Assembly (NCBI GenBank): GCA_002348225.1
Contig: DEAP01000041.1
Span: 5,047 to 69,046, forward strand
Direction: 5' to 3'
DNA from: Dehalococcoidia bacterium UBA2979
Lineage (GTDB): Bacteria; Chloroflexota; Dehalococcoidia; UBA2979
DNA length: 64,000 bases
Of the stretch, positions 11,770-30,801 are shown piece after piece. Each line of letters opens with the position of its first letter. The first letter of the stretch is position 1. Below the pieces are notes generated by a model. It was given only the letters and a program-made list of their open reading frames with translations, was not told the origin of the DNA and made no database searches. A program made the translations under genes and the position numbers.

Positions 11770-12639
11770 ATGACAAAGAGACAGTTTCTTGTTTTAGCTG
11801 TCGGCATACTTGCGGTCAGTTGGGCGGGGCCGCTGATCAGACTGGCCGACGAAGCATCATTTCTATTTGTCGCAGCAGCGAGACTTGCTCTGGCTTCACC
11901 TGTGATGCTCCTCTTAGCTCTCTATCGTCGTAACCAACGAATGATTGTCATCCCCTCTAGACATACATTACTGATGATTCTGTCTGGAGTCGCATTGGCT
12001 GCACATTTTGGTTTTTGGGTAGCGAGCATCTCTCATACATCTATCCTGGCCTCAGTTGCTCTTGTTGCTATGAGTCCATTATTTGCGGCTCTCGGGGAAT
12101 GGCTATTTCTTAGCTATAGACCTAGCAAAGTAGTGTTCATAGGTATTCTTATTAGCTCAGTTGGGGCGGTAGGACTGGCTTGGTCTGATTTCGGTACTGG
12201 AGGCATATATGGTGACCTACTCGCGATCATCGGTGCAATACTTGCTTCCGTTTATTTGTTGCTCGGAAGGTATACACGACAGCAGATTGACTTAACTGCG
12301 TACGGGGCGATCGTCTACGCGGTGGGTGCCAGTGTACTTGCCGTGATCCTGCTCATCGTAGGAGTAAATTGGGCAAATTATCAGCTCGAGACCTATGTGT
12401 TTATTTTATTCCTTGCATTAATCCCCCAGTTGATCGGTCACAATGCGATTAATTATTCCTTGGGATTTGCACCTGCAGCGGTGGTCGCTCTTGCCATCCT
12501 CGGCGAGCCAGTTGGTTCTGCTCTAATTGCTGCATTGTTGTTTGAAGAAATTCCGTCAGTAATTGAGGCGTGTTTTGGATGTGTAATATTGCTTGGAGTT
12601 GGCATTGGAGTCAGAGGTGTGGAAATCACCAAAAGTTAA
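11770..12639 (+). CDS. DMT superfamily (EamA-like) transporter.
   Basis: It is 289 aa with about 10 predicted TM helices arranged as two EamA-like repeats. Confidence 0.75.
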   Translation: MTKRQFLVLAVGILAVSWAGPLIRLADEASFLFVAAARLALASPVMLLLALYRRNQRMIVIPSRHTLLMILSGVALAAHFGFWVASISHTSILASVALVAMSPLFAALGEWLFLSYRPSKVVFIGILISSVGAVGLAWSDFGTGGIYGDLLAIIGAILASVYLLLGRYTRQQIDLTAYGAIVYAVGASVLAVILLIVGVNWANYQLETYVFILFLALIPQLIGHNAINYSLGFAPAAVVALAILGEPVGSALIAALLFEEIPSVIEACFGCVILLGVGIGVRGVEITKS

Positions 12640-13874
12640 CCTAATTCTACGTCAGGCCTTTCTTCCCACAAAATCTGTTGCTCGACAAGTTCGTCGAGTT
12701 GTGTGGTATCGAATTCAAGTAATTCCGACAGGACTTCGCGCGTGTGCTCCCCCATATCAGGGGACGTTCCCTTAATTCCACCAGGCGTTCTTGACATTTT
12801 TATCGGAGTATTTGCCAGAGGGGTAGGACCAAATGTTTTATGATCCACGTGGGGCAACATATCTCGGGCTGCTACCTGTGGCATTGCGGAGGCTTCCGCG
12901 ATGTTGTTTAGAGGTCCGCACGGGATTCCGTATTTCTGAAGTGCATCGACCCAATCCGATGTATTTTTTTTAATAAAGGCCTGGTTCAATAGAGCTTCTA
13001 AATCAGCGTGATTCCGTGTGCGGGCTGCAGAGGTCTCGAAGCGTGGGTCGTCAATGAGTTCTGGGACATCAAGTTCGACACACAGAAGCCCCCACTGGTT
13101 TGAAATTCCCCACGCGAGGGCGAGAACGATGTATCCATCTTTGGTAGGGAATCCTTGGAAAGGCACGGCCGTAGGATGTCTCGTCCCAATTCGACCAGGG
13201 ATTTCCTGAGTGATGTGGTATCTCATATATTCGTTTGTCTGAGCCGCTATCTGGCAGTCAAGCATCGATATATCAATCAACTGGCCTTCTCCAGACTTTT
13301 CACGTTCGTGTATTGCCGCTAAAACGCCGACAGAGCAATAGAGGCCAGCTGCTACATCGCCGACAGAAAACCCTACCCGAGCAGGCCCGGAATCAGGGTA
13401 TCCGGTAATGGACATCACTCCTCCAGCTCCCTGAACAATAACGTCCAGCGCGGGTTTGTCCTTAAGAGGGCCAGTCTGGCCGTAACCAGAAATCGCTGCG
13501 TATATAAGCCTGGGATTTATATTTTTGAGATCGTGGTAGCCGAGTCCAAGGCGATCCATAGCGCCAGGGGTGAAGTTCTCTACCACCACATCAACTTCTT
13601 TTATCAGGTCTCGGAAAATTTCTTTTCCTCTATCTTTGCTGAGATCCACTGCAATCGATCTCTTACCTCGATTGACAGAAAAGAAATAACCAGATTCTCC
13701 ATCGATCATAGGTAAGGTAGTACGTGCGACGTCCCCGTACGGAGGTCTTTCTAATTTAATGACATCGGCGCCGAGATCTCCAAGTGTCTGGGTACAGATT
13801 GGTCCAGACAGAACCCAGGTGAGGTCTAGAATACTGATTCCTTTGAGGGGTCCAGACGTTGGCAATGCTGGCAC
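12636..13874 (-). CDS. CaiB/BaiF family (class III) CoA-transferase.
   Basis: The N-terminus LKGISILDLTWVLSGPICTQTLGDLGADVIKLERP is the family-III CoA-transferase signature. It has a GTG start 20 nt downstream of the UGSC gene stop, so it is probably co-transcribed. Confidence 0.85.
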   Translation of the reverse strand: MPALPTSGPLKGISILDLTWVLSGPICTQTLGDLGADVIKLERPPYGDVARTTLPMIDGESGYFFSVNRGKRSIAVDLSKDRGKEIFRDLIKEVDVVVENFTPGAMDRLGLGYHDLKNINPRLIYAAISGYGQTGPLKDKPALDVIVQGAGGVMSITGYPDSGPARVGFSVGDVAAGLYCSVGVLAAIHEREKSGEGQLIDISMLDCQIAAQTNEYMRYHITQEIPGRIGTRHPTAVPFQGFPTKDGYIVLALAWGISNQWGLLCVELDVPELIDDPRFETSAARTRNHADLEALLNQAFIKKNTSDWVDALQKYGIPCGPLNNIAEASAMPQVAARDMLPHVDHKTFGPTPLANTPIKMSRTPGGIKGTSPDMGEHTREVLSELLEFDTTQLDELVEQQILWEERPDVELG

Positions 13875-13894: not shown

Positions 13895-14431
13895 TCAGTC
13901 GACGAGCGCATCAATCAGCTGTTCAATGACTTCGTCGGCCTTGTTATGCATTTCATTATCGGTTTGATCCTGCATTGGATGCCGAATAAACACCCGATGA
14001 ACGTCCGGCATTCCTAGTGATTTTGATTGAGCTGCGGCTGCATCCACAAATTCATTAGTTGCTACAAACACGGCGGGTATGCCGTTGCTTTCAAACCAAA
14101 CCGTATCGTGCACACTGCACGTTGTGCAAGATCCTCAGTCAGCGACTGCCTCAATTACAAAATTACACTCGTTCATGATTTTACGCCGTAAATCATATGG
14201 TGCTGGTTTTGCGAACGTTGGTTTCTTATATCTCTTGACATGAACCGACGGCATTTGTTCATGTATTTGTTGCTCCAATCGATCAAGAAATTTGTCACCG
14301 CGTGGTTTTGATATGTCGAGCAGGCCAATAGTGCCCGTTATGTGCTCGGACCGCTTAGCCTGAGACCTACTAATAGGTTCTCTTTCATCAGTAGGGTCGA
14401 GAATTATTGTCGGGTTAACTTCCAATGTCAT
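13895..14431 (-). CDS. UGSC-motif (seleno)protein; in-frame TGA at 14135..14137 read as Sec.
   Basis: ORFs 14135..14515 and 13895..14113 share a frame. Reading through the TGA gives ...EAVAD-U-GSCTTCSVHDTVWFESNG..., i.e. a U-G-S-C motif like that of the described UGSC (seleno)protein family. The start is set at ATG 14431, which has a strong GGAGGA RBS and lies after the upstream gene's stop. A hairpin 13 nt after the UGA (14107..14121, CGUGCA-GUG-UGCACG, GU in the loop) is bSECIS-like. Confidence 0.6.
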
Positions 14432-14460: not shown

Positions 14461-16050
14461 TTAAAGTTGTATTTTCTTGCTGGTGGGCATCGAACCACCT
14501 GTACCGCTGGCCCATCCATCAAAGACAGACGAAAATTTTCCGGCTTTAGAGCCTGCCACAACGATATGGATATTTTCAGTTGAGCGGAATTTTGGTATGA
14601 GTGAATCAAGCTTGGGATCAGAGGGGCCATCGAATATGTTGGGGTCCAGTCCAGCTCCTATTTCGTCATTCCTAAGGAGTTCCCGGGCAGGTCGACTTGA
14701 GATATCTTGAATCCGATCCCGAATTTCTGATTTCGACCAGTTATTAGTGGAAATTGTCTCGACATGTTCTGGGCAAAGTACCAGGATTGTGTCCCCGTAG
14801 TTGTGTGAGTTGGGGTGATGAATTGCTTCCATTTTTACGCCAATTGATCCAACCAGTGATTTGGCATCTCTCGAAGTTTGGTCGATAGCATGTCCGAGTC
14901 CAGTCATGGCAAACGCAGTGACTACTGACTCATTTTTATCAAATCCCCGTTCAACATGTAGAGGAGCCCACGGGCTGATTTCCTCCCACTCCGCAAAACA
15001 TGTTGTATATCGGAGAGGACTACCCAGTGTCGACCGTTCGGTCTCTCCAGGCCGCTGTCCTCCAACATTTCTCAGGACAAGCCGGAGAGCTCGACCGATT
15101 GCGGCATTTGCCCGATTTCCTTGGCCGAGAGCATTGAGGCCCATGTTCATGCCTATTTCATGTCGGATTGGCCCGTTAACTATGAGAACCGGCGTTGCTC
15201 CCATAGTGGTCGCGCCCACACCGTGGGCATTAAATTCTTCAGTGCAAACTGCTTCTACGGCCGCTATAACCACCGGCAAGTATTCTGGTTTGCAACCTGC
15301 CATTACCGAATTGATCGCTATTTTTTCAACGGTTACTGGTGCAAGATTTGGTGGTACCACCGCAACAGTTTCTTGAGGATCTCGCTTAGTGCCTTCTAGT
15401 ATTCTGATTACTCGTTCCGGCGTAGGTGGGATCACCGGTAATCCATCAGTCAGGCCTTGTTCATATAGGAACTCATGAACGTCGTCATGTACTCCTATCT
15501 CCACTCGTCGGGCCCGTATAGGTGATCCTTCAGATTCAGCTTGTAATCGTTCAAAAATGCCCGGCTCCAAAGACTTGGAACCGCATCCAGGTCGTGATTC
15601 GGGATACGAATTCCAATCTACTTCAGGAGGTGTTTGTTCGCTGATGGCCGACATCTTCACATACAGCTCGCGCCAGTCATCTCGTCCGAAGCCGACAAAG
15701 TCAGTCACTGGAGTCCCATCAGGTGAAGCAAGAATGAGAGTGGGAACGGTTTCAATATCGTATGCGAACGAGGTGGTGAGACTGGAGTCATCTAGCAGTG
15801 GCATCATAAGGCCGTATTCTTCTGCTAATACGAGGTCATCTTCTCCATTTTGGGCTAGTGCCACTACATCAATATCTTTTCCGAACACTTCATAGGCCTT
15901 TTGTAGAAGAGGCATAGCGATTCTGGTTGTCGGACAGTCCTCCTTGACGAAACAAAGAAGTGTCGGGCGGCCTGACGGGAAGGAATAGGCGTTCTGAGTT
16001 CGGGTCGCGCCCGCTGTTGGTAGGGAAAAGTTTGGTAAATTATTCATCAC
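14461..16050 (-). CDS. Hypothetical 529-aa protein: N-terminal thioredoxin/peroxiredoxin-like domain fused to a large uncharacterised domain.
   Basis: The N-terminal approximately 140 aa carry a Trx-like pattern (TLLCFVKEDCPTTR...VPTLILASPDG). The C-terminal approximately 380 aa (GLTDGLPVIPPTPERV..., GATTMGATPVLIVNGPIRHE...) match no family I can name. It sits immediately upstream of the UGSC gene in the same operon. Confidence 0.5.
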   Translation of the reverse strand: MMNNLPNFSLPTAGATRTQNAYSFPSGRPTLLCFVKEDCPTTRIAMPLLQKAYEVFGKDIDVVALAQNGEDDLVLAEEYGLMMPLLDDSSLTTSFAYDIETVPTLILASPDGTPVTDFVGFGRDDWRELYVKMSAISEQTPPEVDWNSYPESRPGCGSKSLEPGIFERLQAESEGSPIRARRVEIGVHDDVHEFLYEQGLTDGLPVIPPTPERVIRILEGTKRDPQETVAVVPPNLAPVTVEKIAINSVMAGCKPEYLPVVIAAVEAVCTEEFNAHGVGATTMGATPVLIVNGPIRHEIGMNMGLNALGQGNRANAAIGRALRLVLRNVGGQRPGETERSTLGSPLRYTTCFAEWEEISPWAPLHVERGFDKNESVVTAFAMTGLGHAIDQTSRDAKSLVGSIGVKMEAIHHPNSHNYGDTILVLCPEHVETISTNNWSKSEIRDRIQDISSRPARELLRNDEIGAGLDPNIFDGPSDPKLDSLIPKFRSTENIHIVVAGSKAGKFSSVFDGWASGTGGSMPTSKKIQL

Positions 16051-16086: not shown

Positions 16087-16461
16087 CTATTTTGGTATCC
16101 AGTCTGTTGTGAATACCAATGCTAGGGTCAGTATAGACAAAATAAGTATGAAAGATAGTATGCGCCCTCGATGTCGTTTTCGACTCTTGTGCATTAATTT
16201 CTTTGCAGCACGTACTTGACCCGTTTTCAGCGCAAACCATTCACCTCGAATTCTCGTTTCCTTGAAGGCATTATGTAGTTTGCGCTCAATCATGAGTGCA
16301 TCGTCTGTTTGAATAGACTTCACGATTTCTAATTTAGTTGGCGAGCCAGTTTGCAGATTTCTCATCCGATCCTGCATGTTTGAGGTTTGCCCTATTTTGT
16401 AGAGTTGTTCGGAGCCAATTTTTGGCCCACGGATAAGATACACGAAGCCGTCTTTTTTCAT
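16087..16461 (-). CDS. GIY-YIG nuclease-superfamily domain protein with a C-terminal transmembrane anchor.
   Basis: It has GFVYLIRG...LYKIGQT spacing typical of GIY-YIG (T5orf172-like). It also has a basic region and a hydrophobic C-terminal helix (ILSFILILSILTLALVF). Confidence 0.55.
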   Translation of the reverse strand: MKKDGFVYLIRGPKIGSEQLYKIGQTSNMQDRMRNLQTGSPTKLEIVKSIQTDDALMIERKLHNAFKETRIRGEWFALKTGQVRAAKKLMHKSRKRHRGRILSFILILSILTLALVFTTDWIPK

Positions 16462-16553: not shown

Positions 16554-17354
16554 ATGCCCATACTCGATGAATTTAACTTGTCCGGTCAGGCAGCCATTAT
16601 CACTGGTGCCGGGACTGGCTTGGGACGAGAAATGGCACTGGCACTGGCTGATTCCGGGTGTGACATAGTTGCGATAGGTCGACGGCAGGAGCCAATCGAA
16701 AGTGTGGGAGCAGAGATAGAGTCTCGAGGCCGGAGGTTTTTGGGTATTTCTGACGGTGATGTCACAAAATCTGAGAGAGTCAACGAAATGTTCAAGGACG
16801 CTATCTCGAAGATGGGACGTATAACACTGCTGATCAATAACGCCGGGCTCGGCGGCAGTGGGCGAGGCAAGACACTGCCCGAACTTACTGATGAAGACTG
16901 GCATAGTGGGATTGAAAGTAATTTATACTCAGCCTTCTATTGTTCGAGGTCAATCATCCCTCATTTTCTTGAGAATGGTGGTGGACGTGTGATCAACGTA
17001 ACCTCCGGTTGGGGCTACCGTGGTGGCAGAAATAACTGGATGTATCCGGTAGCAAAGGGTGGAGTGATTCAATTAACAAAAGCCCTTGCTATGACTTACG
17101 CCAGAGATAACGTGCGGGCGTCGTGTATTGCACCCGGTCTTTTCCCTAAGACAGATGACGAAGCTATGCTCGAGCAAATGGGAAGCAAGCAGCCGGCTGG
17201 TCGAATTGGCTTCATGCCAGAGATGGGACCTCTCGCAGTATTTCTCGCGTCACCGGCGTCGGATTATTTGAGTGGTGAAACCATTTTGATGGATGGTGGT
17301 GCCATATCAGCTGGTCTCATCCCGGCAGGTATTATTCCGGAATCAGAAGCGTAG
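16554..17354 (+). CDS. SDR family oxidoreductase.
   Basis: It has the TGAGTGLGREMA Rossmann motif and the catalytic YxxxK. A GGGGGAG RBS precedes the start. Confidence 0.85.
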   Translation: MPILDEFNLSGQAAIITGAGTGLGREMALALADSGCDIVAIGRRQEPIESVGAEIESRGRRFLGISDGDVTKSERVNEMFKDAISKMGRITLLINNAGLGGSGRGKTLPELTDEDWHSGIESNLYSAFYCSRSIIPHFLENGGGRVINVTSGWGYRGGRNNWMYPVAKGGVIQLTKALAMTYARDNVRASCIAPGLFPKTDDEAMLEQMGSKQPAGRIGFMPEMGPLAVFLASPASDYLSGETILMDGGAISAGLIPAGIIPESEA

Positions 17355-17369
17355 GCGAAGGAGTGAAAT

Positions 17370-18218
17370 ATGACCAACGAAGTCTTTCCAATTACCCCTG
17401 AAGGTGAACAAAATCCATATTTCTCCGGGAGATATTTTGATCTGAGTGGGAAACATGCCCTTGTGACAGGTGCTACTACAGATATTGCGAGAGCTCTCGC
17501 AGTCGCCCTGGCTGAAGCTGGTGCAAAAGTGTCCGTTACTACTAGCGCTGCAGTAGATGAACAAGAAGTGCTTGCTAACTCGATATTAAATGAATGTTGG
17601 GCTGCGTCTGGTGAGGAAGGCAAGAGCCTGACCTTGGACTTGACCGATGCACCTAGTTTCGTGGAGGCAATTGAATCTCTCGAAAAAGAGCTTGGACCTG
17701 TTGATGTTTTGGTGAATGCTCCTCATTTCGCTAATATAAAGCCAGTTCTAGACTCCTCTACGGATGAATGGGCTAATGAACTATCCAGAAATGCCACAGC
17801 GGTGTTTGTGGCGAGTCAGACTGTCGGTCGTGGGATGGTTTCGCGCGGCAAGGGTCGAATAATTAATTTAGTGTCTAATCTTTATGACCGGGGTATCCCT
17901 AACTGTGCATTATTTGGTGCATCGCAAGGTGCAGTACTAGGGTTCACAAAATCACTCGGGCTGGAGTGGGGTGGAGGAGATCCGCTTACCAAAGACAGAG
18001 TCACTGTGAATGCACTAGGGATCGGATTCTATGAAGGGGTCGCAGGACCACAAAACGATCCTAATCTTTCTCCAGTTTTGGAAAAATATATCCCACTAAG
18101 GCGTCTTGGCCGACCGGAAGATCTAAGAGGCGCAGTTGTATACCTTGCCTCGGATGAAGCTGATTATGTAAACGCTGAACTTTTGGTGGTAGATGGCTCG
18201 ATAGTCAATCACGCATAA
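17370..18218 (+). CDS. SDR family oxidoreductase (divergent).
   Basis: It has SDR fold motifs (ALVTGATTDIARALAVALAEAGAKV). It is translationally coupled 15 nt after the preceding SDR. Confidence 0.8.
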   Translation: MTNEVFPITPEGEQNPYFSGRYFDLSGKHALVTGATTDIARALAVALAEAGAKVSVTTSAAVDEQEVLANSILNECWAASGEEGKSLTLDLTDAPSFVEAIESLEKELGPVDVLVNAPHFANIKPVLDSSTDEWANELSRNATAVFVASQTVGRGMVSRGKGRIINLVSNLYDRGIPNCALFGASQGAVLGFTKSLGLEWGGGDPLTKDRVTVNALGIGFYEGVAGPQNDPNLSPVLEKYIPLRRLGRPEDLRGAVVYLASDEADYVNAELLVVDGSIVNHA

Positions 18219-20025: not shown

Positions 20026-20799
20026 ATGGACAGATATGAAGGATCAACTGCGCTCGTGACTGGTGCCGCGTCTGGCATCGGACGTGCGATGGCTGAGCGA
20101 CTGGCGGAAGAGGGATGCGCTGTAGTGTGTGCTGACATTGATGGTGAAGGCGCCGAAGACACAGCAGCCCAGCTGCTTGAAAAGGGTAGCAGGGCATCTG
20201 CCATAAAACTGGATGTAACTGACTCAACGGCGATTAAAGAAGCTATTGAGAAAACTATTGATGAATTTGGTTCGTTTGACGTGCTTATGAATAATGCGGG
20301 GATAGCTGGTGGGAGTTGGGAAGACACTATAGACATTAATTTGAGTGGTGTGTATTACGGACTTCAACATGGTTGCCGGGTCATGGCCCAGAGAGGCGGT
20401 GGTTCAATTGTGAATACAGCTTCTGTTGCTGGCCTAAACGGCTTAGTAGGCACAACAGTCACCCCTGAAGAACTTTTGCAGGGTGAGGGGGCGGTGGGCA
20501 CTGGAGCTTATACAGCCGCCAAGCATGGTGTAGTGGGTTTGACCAGGCAATTTGCTGTGACGTACGGCAAACTAAATGTTCGAGTGAACGCGATTTGTCC
20601 GGGTTACATTGTGACCCCAATGACAGCACCATTCCGTGAGCGCGAAGGCGGAACAGAATTCTTAGAAAGTCTTCATCCCATTGGCCGACTCGGTGAATCA
20701 GAAGAAATCGCATCGGCAGCGGCTTTCTTAGCTAGTTCTGATGCTTCATTTATTACGGGAATTGCTCTCCCAGTTGATGGTGGCTATACCGCTAGGTAA
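20026..20799 (+). CDS. SDR family oxidoreductase (3-oxoacyl-ACP-reductase-like).
   Basis: It has ALVTGAASGIGRAMAERLAEEG, NNAG and YxxxK motifs. A GGGAGG RBS precedes the start. Confidence 0.85.
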   Translation: MDRYEGSTALVTGAASGIGRAMAERLAEEGCAVVCADIDGEGAEDTAAQLLEKGSRASAIKLDVTDSTAIKEAIEKTIDEFGSFDVLMNNAGIAGGSWEDTIDINLSGVYYGLQHGCRVMAQRGGGSIVNTASVAGLNGLVGTTVTPEELLQGEGAVGTGAYTAAKHGVVGLTRQFAVTYGKLNVRVNAICPGYIVTPMTAPFREREGGTEFLESLHPIGRLGESEEIASAAAFLASSDASFITGIALPVDGGYTAR

Positions 20800-30491: not shown

Positions 30492-30607
30492 GGGGTTTTC
30501 TCACTTTCTGAGCGAGATAGTCAACTTTCCTTAAGATTATTTCATGTTTGATGATTATACATATGACTCATCTTTGACAGGGTGCTATTATTCATCACGA
30601 TTAACTT

Positions 30608-30695
30608 TGTCCCGCTGGGGGGGCCGTACGGCTGAGATCCTTGGAATATAGGACTACCCCGAGAACCTGAACTCGGTAATTCGAGCGGAGGAAAG
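30608..30695 (+). promoter_or_regulatory. TPP (THI-box) riboswitch.
   Basis: The sequence CCGCUGGGGGGGCC...GGCUGAGA...ACCCCGAGAACCUGAACUCGGUAAUUCGAGCGGAGGAA matches the conserved TPP aptamer cores (GGGG.GCC, GCUGAGA, ACCC...GAACCUGA.C.GGUAAU.C.GCG.AGG). P1 is CCGCU/AGCGG. It lies 5' of the ykoF-thiXYZ-like operon. Confidence 0.85.
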
Positions 30696-30801
30696 CGAAG
30701 GAAGAGTTGTAGAACTTGTTTCTACTCTGCTCAGATCTCCACGTAATCTCCGCAATTACCAATAGTCTCAGGCTAATGAAGGCAGTTGTTAGGAGAAATT
30801 T

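Follow-up and report, generated by a model that had tools for sequence, protein, structure and literature searches.

Reductases of the Grd and Prd type work with a thioredoxin or dithiol reductant and have a pyruvoyl partner, GrdE or PrdA, and in a second group of enzymes a thioredoxin (Trx) fold is fused directly to a reductase, as in the Trx-MsrA-MsrB protein 'PilB' and the peroxiredoxin-glutaredoxin (Prx-Grx) hybrids. Here we examine an open reading frame (ORF) in a 64,000-nucleotide stretch of DNA from Dehalococcoidia bacterium UBA2979 (contig DEAP01000041.1, positions 5,047 to 69,046; hereafter the window), which encodes an N-terminal Trx-fold domain joined by a flexible linker to a large unnamed domain, here called domain X, and which lies directly upstream of a gene for a selenoprotein of the UGSC family. 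Since 2007-2008 UGSC proteins have been counted among the most abundant selenoprotein families of prokaryotes in aquatic metagenomes, and reviews as late as 2026 still give no function for them (PMC2398784, PMC9312934, PMC13188914). A UGSC gene is reported for Hyphomonas neptunium, a cultured organism (PMC1976440). The accessible part of this literature holds a single mention of a 'UGSC/Unknown_1' fusion, in which 'Unknown_1' is a conserved domain with a conserved cysteine that is fused to a UGSC protein and is also found alone in some aquatic organisms (Zhang & Gladyshev 2008, PMC2398784). That description fits domain X, to which 'Unknown_1' may correspond; the same paper reports no Trx fusion, gene pairing or family extent.

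From comparative sequence analysis we propose, as a reading that we hold to be on balance probable, that the product of the ORF is the large subunit of a two-gene redox module in which domain X and the UGSC protein would together form a thiol/selenol reductase recycled by the fused Trx domain. The comparisons draw on an alignment of 40 full-length homologs, on a genomic set of 87 loci (the Sec set, for selenocysteine), made up of the window, six contig look-ups and 80 loci from GTDB, and on a reverse test in which metagenomes were scanned with the UGSC alignment, with a Cys codon in the pattern. The reverse test is a biased sample that returned 80 Cys-form (CGSC) homologs only (the Cys set). 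The principal features, all on the minus strand, are as follows.

14461..16050, minus strand: the whole Trx-linker-X fusion ORF, 529 codons from the GTG at 16050, with a TAA stop at 14461-14463
15646..16041, minus strand: Trx-fold domain, TlpA/ResA-like, amino acids (aa) 4-135, from Pfam, PDB sequence, fold and an AlphaFold2 (AF2) predicted local distance difference test score (pLDDT) of ~90
15925..15936, minus strand: Trx active-site tetrapeptide C39-P-T-T42, from the alignment of homologs
15577..15591, minus strand: linker motif P-G-C156-G-S, from conservation; pLDDT <50
14464..15498, minus strand: domain X, alpha/beta, aa ~185-529, unnamed; AF2 predicted template modelling score (pTM) 0.84
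15292..15294, minus strand: Cys253 in N-A-V-M-A-G-C, the most conserved X cysteine (86/87 in the Sec set, 44/44 in the Cys set)
14998..15000, minus strand: Cys351 in T-x-C-F-A-E-x-E-E, near-universal (84/87 in the Sec set, 41/44 in the Cys set)
13895..14431, minus strand: UGSC-family selenoprotein gene, 29 nt past the X stop, after a GGAGGA motif
14135..14137, minus strand: in-frame TGA read as Sec (U99) in IEAVAD-U-GSCTTCSVHD; Cys in Cys-form homologs
14107..14121, minus strand: hairpin resembling a selenocysteine insertion sequence (SECIS), 6 bp with a G-U-N loop, 16-31 nt from the first UGA base

The ORF reported by the first-pass annotation is present, and all three peptides that the annotation cited occur in its translation. 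Gene callers on Tara Oceans and Joint Genome Institute (JGI) contigs place the probable start at the ATG at 16047, giving a protein of 528 aa, and the identical 528-aa protein is found on at least 24 of these contigs. The protein is cytoplasmic and of three parts, Trx-fold domain, flexible linker and domain X; no signal peptide or membrane anchor was detected, the N-terminus (MNNLPNFSLPTAGATRTQNAYSFPSGR) showing on inspection no hydrophobic stretch.

Set against the described systems, the module resembles each in part. With the TlpA/ResA/CcmG oxidoreductases it shares the fold of its N-terminal 135 aa, the cis-Pro loop and, in most homologs, a C-x-x-C motif at the start of helix 1. Unlike these, the window protein is cytoplasmic, carries a 390-aa extension and belongs to a family with C-x-T-C after an invariant Glu instead of W-C-x-x-C. 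Like component B of the Grd and Prd systems, it comprises two proteins, a U-x-x-C selenoprotein and a larger partner, with a Trx-type reductant. However, the UGSC protein is only ~170 aa and falls far under the family cut-offs, X does not match GrdE, PrdA or the N-terminal part of GrdB, and most hosts of X-UGSC pairs are aerobic heterotrophs of water or soil, as opposed to Stickland fermenters; the surroundings of X-UGSC loci showed no GrdA, GrdC or GrdD genes. As in PilB and the Prx-Grx hybrids, a Trx fold shares one chain with the enzyme that it presumably recycles, and in another lineage a ferredoxin:thioredoxin reductase (FTR) domain takes the same position; the module differs from these hybrids in that the fused domain has an unsolved fold and a separately encoded selenoprotein is needed. 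The design principle, a thiol/selenol reductase with its own Trx module and a remote likeness to the selenoprotein B reductases, would be familiar, and the catalytic partner an unnamed domain.

The association of X with UGSC is conserved over long phylogenetic distances. In 83 of the 87 Sec-set loci the UGSC gene lies directly downstream of X on the same strand, at a median gap of ~30 nt, and these 83 loci span Chloroflexota, Binatia, Proteobacteria, Acidobacteriota, Actinomycetota and Myxococcota. A TGA codon occupies the U position in 82 of the 83 UGSC partners (79 UGSC and 3 UGAC), the remaining one having Cys. In the reverse test, X adjoins the Cys-form UGSC gene on the same strand at 66 of 80 loci (54 downstream, 12 upstream); ten of the remainder have flanks too short to judge and four lack X despite at least 1.5 kb on both sides, which gives 66 of 70 testable loci. 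X therefore partners UGSC with or without selenium, which argues against a role for X in selenium insertion. The two are also joined on single chains: UGSC-X fusions with CGSC or related motifs occur in five proteins (P0193, P0239, P0259, P0265 and P0205), in an X-UGSC fusion (P0185) the ORF ends precisely at the Sec codon, and many further ORFs consist of the post-Sec half of UGSC followed by X (for example P0171, P0184, P0210 and P0223). The suggestion that this protein is the likely partner of the selenoprotein thus gains strong comparative support from the downstream position of UGSC, from the adjacency of the Cys forms and from natural fusions in both orders, and we regard it as very probable that X is the functional partner of UGSC.

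Besides UGSC, the N-terminal fusions to X are disulfide-reductase modules, the Trx-like domain being the majority form. In one protein (P0146; L168:1523-2935, L169, L170), identical on three independent contigs, an FTR catalytic domain replaces Trx (PF02943, E=2e-21, CPC...CPC...CHC); its gene is directly preceded by one for a Sec-UGSC protein, and its linker lacks the PGCGS cysteine. This repeated attachment of protein-disulfide-reducing modules to X is the strongest mechanistic clue. X also occurs in stand-alone form (~350 aa) and as a tandem double-X protein (~710-740 aa). Two tandem X domains are present in P0133, P0152, P0155, P0156, P0191 and P0242, which hints that X works as a dimer.

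The UGSC gene scores above the curated cut-offs of both family models, PF24696 (E=7e-49, 166.7 bits against 25) and NF041046 (170.1 bits against 125), and the family consensus is D-U-G-S-C-T-x-C-S-x-H-D, the third Cys being absent in some members. All 17 of the diverse loci compared keep the SECIS-like hairpin that follows the UGA, with a compensatory change in one base pair, a pattern expected of bacterial SECIS elements; folded as a single sequence, the hairpin scores no better than shuffles. In a lineage with stand-alone X (L004:7432-7491), the third Cys of UGSC and the next His are both replaced by Arg (CGC) and the hairpin pairing is thereby kept, which suggests that the SECIS structure constrains the coding sequence at that locus.

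Four of eight diverse UGSC sequences weakly match the NCBIfam models GrdB, GrdF, GrdH and PrdB, with a best E of 2.4e-4 and values ranging to 0.17. These matches sit around the position that we take to be the selenocysteine of those models. As a selenoprotein B reductase the UGSC protein reaches only 12-15 bits against cut-offs of 600-800. In an hhalign comparison, D-U-G-S-C aligned on N-U-P-V-C of a PrdB-like Global Ocean Sampling (GOS) read from a published dataset (PMC2398784), weakly, at a probability of 9.3% and E=0.0035. As judged by sequence, the relation of UGSC to GrdB and PrdB is one of weak resemblance, not membership.

Domain X could not be assigned to any described family. The first-pass annotation had treated the C-terminal two-thirds as a single 380-aa domain matching no nameable family. 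The lack of a match is borne out, Pfam, NCBIfam and PDB all being empty for this part, and the uniform domain gives way to a linker of ~45 aa and a core of ~345 aa. Residues ~140-529 have no match in Pfam-A, NCBIfam 20.0 or PDB sequences, also with the 40-sequence profile at E<=10, and the 40 X members searched singly against Pfam and NCBIfam at E<=10 returned nothing beyond the Trx domain. The AF2 model of the full-length protein has a pLDDT of 84 and a pTM of 0.63, which rises to 0.84 for residues 140-529 alone. Foldseek searches with the full-length model gave Trx-fold matches only, and for X no fold match was convincing, the highest TM (template modelling score) being 0.26. With the X-only model the sole PDB matches below 1e-3 were to Leishmania class I (Fe-S) fumarate hydratase (E=4.6e-4, probability 0.89), whose fold is shared by tartrate dehydratase. 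We do not regard X as a member: although this is its best Foldseek match, the TM is 0.25 with a root-mean-square deviation (rmsd) of ~17 A, the X profile against E. coli FumA reaches 0.4% in hhalign, and the three cluster-ligand cysteines of the hydratase are not matched by X, which has only two near-universal ones. A reading of the C-terminal 'AGSKAGKFS' as a P-loop was rejected, its spacing being wrong and its Lys not conserved. A GrdE/PrdA-type pyruvoyl proenzyme, in which a self-cleavage site might lie at G155|C156, finds no Pfam or NCBIfam match among the 40 X sequences at E<=10. A confident match to an unrelated housekeeping family was looked for, and none was found.

The window protein carries all the motifs of the X family: G-x-T-D-G-L-P-V-x-P-P-T, N-A-V-M-A-G-C, N-G-P, R-A-N-x-x-I-G-R-A and C-x-A-E-x-E. 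A check for conserved Cys and His residues across homologs, as the annotation had advised, found C253 and C351 near-universal and H429 conserved, with the invariant E354 and E356 following just after Cys351. Both the Sec-partnered and the Cys-partnered X clades keep E193, D202, N247, C253, T282, N292, N302, R313, N315, R320, N328, C351, E354, E356, E428 and H429. The family is large: searched with X alone, a set of 1.84 billion representatives yields 5,319 clusters at 50% identity (E<=1e-3), 1,404 of these clusters below 1e-30, and X is carried by at least 597 GTDB species, with one genome scanned per species, including Chloroflexota, Binatia, Alpha-, Beta-, Gamma- and Deltaproteobacteria, Acidobacteriota, Actinomycetota and Myxococcota. 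Neither Pfam nor NCBIfam has a model for these more than 5,000 clusters. The public names of X homologs are either 'hypothetical protein' or reflect the N-terminal domain only ('TlpA family protein disulfide reductase', 'redoxin', 'peroxiredoxin'), so that members of the family are systematically mis-annotated as peroxiredoxins or TlpA family disulfide reductases.

The redox-type N-terminal domain proposed at the outset is confirmed by a Pfam match and by superposition on ResA/TlpA-type folds. Residues 4-112 match AhpC-TSA (E=5.9e-8, 33.1 bits against a cut-off of 26); the domain resembles ResA in the PDB by sequence and by predicted fold, and aligns with ResA/TlpA-type structures in Foldseek at E=6.8e-10 with a TM on the target of 0.82-0.84. 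Against the NCBIfam ResA model it stays under the cut-off (27.5 against 170 bits). Conservation extends to the cis-Pro loop (T-V-P-T), and in 78 of the 80 homologs that have a Trx domain the active site reads E-x-C-x-T-C, the preceding Glu being invariant. A C-x-x-C motif is therefore characteristic of the family as a whole and is not found in the window copy, which is monothiol; a few closest relatives likewise have CPTT or CATT, and the window lineage has lost the resolving Trx cysteine. A peroxiredoxin in the strict sense was rejected, since P-x-x-x-T/S-x-x-C is absent: the corresponding segment, L-L-C-F-V-K-E-D-C-P-T-T, has Lys at -3 and no Pro at -7, and the peroxidatic motif is likewise missing across the 40-homolog alignment.

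The flexible linker corresponds to a low-confidence AF2 segment at aa about 160-201 that holds R-P-G-C156-G-S. Cys156 of the PGCGS motif is present in 82 of the 87 Sec-set loci and in none of the 44 stand-alone X proteins of the Cys set, and thus co-occurs with the Trx fusion. Two Binatia loci (L079 and L084) have X ORFs of ~400 aa that keep the PGCGS cysteine and have no Trx domain on the same chain.

These features can be assembled into a working mechanism. X and UGSC would form one enzyme, in which X may, in keeping with the substrate-handling role that the annotation proposed, supply the substrate pocket (R313, R320, N247/N292/N302/N315/N328, E354, E356, E428 and H429) together with two cysteines, C253 and C351, for the redox centre, and UGSC would supply a U-x-x-C-(x-x-C) centre resembling the selenocysteine site of GrdB and PrdB. 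Turnover on the substrate would oxidise this centre to a selenosulfide or disulfide in each cycle, and the fused Trx domain would re-reduce it, with the linker Cys156 as a swinging or resolving thiol. In the CPTT variant of the window Cys156 could stand in for the lost second Trx cysteine, and where X stands alone a free thioredoxin may take the role of the Trx module. That the Trx domain and linker recycle the redox centre we consider likely. That the chemistry is a Grd/Prd-like reductive cleavage is, in our estimate, doubtful. The variable gene neighbours, which include CoA-transferase, short-chain dehydrogenases/reductases (SDRs), zinc-dependent alcohol dehydrogenase (Zn-ADH) and acyl-CoA enzymes, suggest that the substrate is a small organic molecule of catabolism and that the module does not serve general thiol homeostasis. 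A wider interpretation, which we offer only tentatively, is that X/UGSC is an unrecognised and widespread class of Se- (or Cys-) dependent reductases of aerobic marine, freshwater and soil bacteria, with a catalytic-subunit fold without a solved relative, performing Grd/Prd-like cleavage or acting as a dehydrogenase electron outlet and drawing reducing power through interchangeable fused Trx or FTR-like Fe-S modules.

Several observations weigh against the reductase model. At 4 of the 87 X loci no UGSC gene was found in the 6-kb flanks by a hidden Markov model (HMM) search with read-through; C253 and C351 are each individually lost in a few homologs; the window's own CPTT copy is without the second Trx cysteine; the likeness of UGSC to GrdB/PrdB stays under every curated cut-off, with an hhalign probability of 9%; and the existence of stand-alone X without Trx and PGCGS implies that the core chemistry can do without the fused relay. 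X is also without a recognisable catalytic fold or family, so that it could be a scaffold, and this bears on the alternative that X is a non-catalytic accessory (scaffold, chaperone or regulator) and UGSC alone does the chemistry; the tight pairing and the fusions would equally fit an obligate structural partner. We judge this improbable, because X has double the size of UGSC, shows ~16 polar residues conserved throughout the Sec- and Cys-partnered clades (among them 2 Cys, 2 Arg, 3 Glu and 1 His) in a pattern typical of active sites, and bears the reductase modules, which are fused to X and not to UGSC.

A shared metal or Fe-S centre, with C253, C351 and the U/C and C residues of UGSC as ligands, as in a class I hydro-lyase or other metalloenzyme, is favoured by the only sub-1e-3 Foldseek PDB matches, which are Leishmania class I fumarate hydratase chains, by the U-x-x-C-x-x-C spacing of UGSC, which resembles cluster-binding motifs, and by the conserved His and Glu beside the X cysteines. 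The poor superposition (TM 0.25, rmsd ~17 A) and the FumA hhalign probability of 0.4% nevertheless speak against it, as do the presence of two, not three, conserved Cys in X, the loss of the third UGSC Cys in some members and the fused Trx and FTR modules, which indicate disulfide chemistry, and we rate such a centre as quite improbable. There is a similarly slim chance that X/UGSC serves as an electron sink or protein redox carrier, re-oxidising (or re-reducing) the catabolic dehydrogenases encoded nearby, and has no small-molecule substrate itself: a TIGR03989 Zn-ADH gene directly precedes the Cys-form UGSC gene at 20 of 80 loci and SDR genes recur near the cassette, also in the window, but most loci have no dehydrogenase neighbour, the other neighbours are not conserved, and SDR genes are so common that their association may be due to chance. 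We give hardly any credence to the notion that the N-terminal domain belongs to an ordinary peroxiredoxin or TlpA protein whose juxtaposition with X and UGSC is meaningless. The AhpC-TSA match and the names given to homologs ('peroxiredoxin', 'TlpA family protein disulfide reductase') would fit, but those names derive from the N-terminal quarter only, the segment F-V-K-E-D-C-P-T-T holds no Prx motif, signal sequence and anchor are absent, and the conservation of the X fusion and of UGSC adjacency across phyla contradicts it.

Among the elements of the reductase model, the gene pairing, the Trx-PGCGS-X architecture, the FTR-X variant, the Cys-form pairs and the size of the family are not described in the accessible text of the UGSC literature, nor in Pfam or NCBIfam. 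They make the function of UGSC a testable question, since it has an obligate larger partner with its own Trx or FTR-type module and both Sec and Cys pairs exist; the pair can therefore be co-expressed, in the Cys form or with a U->C change, and assayed as a Trx-dependent reductase.

Clustering of all ORFs at the Sec- and Cys-type loci revealed no conserved neighbour other than UGSC. SelA and SelB genes adjoin the X-UGSC cassette at 10 of 86 Sec-type loci (for example L016:2401-4326 and L024:1924-3510), which suggests that UGSC is a principal client of the Sec machinery in these genomes. The CGSC gene is immediately preceded, in 20 of the 80 Cys-type loci, by the gene for an N,N-dimethyl-4-nitrosoaniline (NDMA)-dependent, nicotinoprotein-type Zn-ADH (TIGR03989, 481 bits against 440), as at L109:2288-3457, and an IclR-type regulator is found nearby at nine Cys-form loci. 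Further recurrent neighbours are SDRs, acyl-CoA dehydrogenase, thiolase and enoyl-CoA hydratase. SDR genes lie near X-UGSC at 19 other loci, possibly by chance given how common they are, and in the window three SDR-family genes stand divergently upstream of the cassette (16554-18218 and 20026-20799, plus strand). On the downstream side, the window holds the following gene.

12636..13874, minus strand: family III CoA-transferase gene (PF02515, E=3e-127), 20 nt past the UGSC stop

This gene is probably co-transcribed with the cassette in the window and is not a conserved member of the module, a family III CoA-transferase lying close to the cassette at 13 of ~166 loci only. The claim that the X gene lies directly upstream of the selenoprotein gene holds, and its placement at the head of an operon is uncertain, as a 124-aa T5orf172/MUG113 (GIY-YIG-like) ORF (16087-16461, minus strand; PF13455, E=2.5e-19) lies 36 nt upstream on that strand. 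The same ORF is in the same place on the Tara/JGI contigs with the identical X protein and was not seen at the loci of other lineages, and it may be a mobile or selfish insertion. Promoter and terminator scans gave nothing above shuffles, and X, UGSC and the Trx domain have no paralogs elsewhere in the window, which also has no tRNA genes and hence no tRNA-Sec. At L001 (5403-5855 and 5877-6593; likewise in L002), some 400 nt upstream of the X gene, two neighbouring ORFs both match DUF3179, which is listed as a selenoprotein family (PMC13188914), and the pair looks like a second TGA-split selenoprotein gene. Finally, a thiamine pyrophosphate (TPP) riboswitch at 30607-30710 on the plus strand (RF00059, 63.9 bits against a gathering score of 54.3) is the sole Rfam match in the window.

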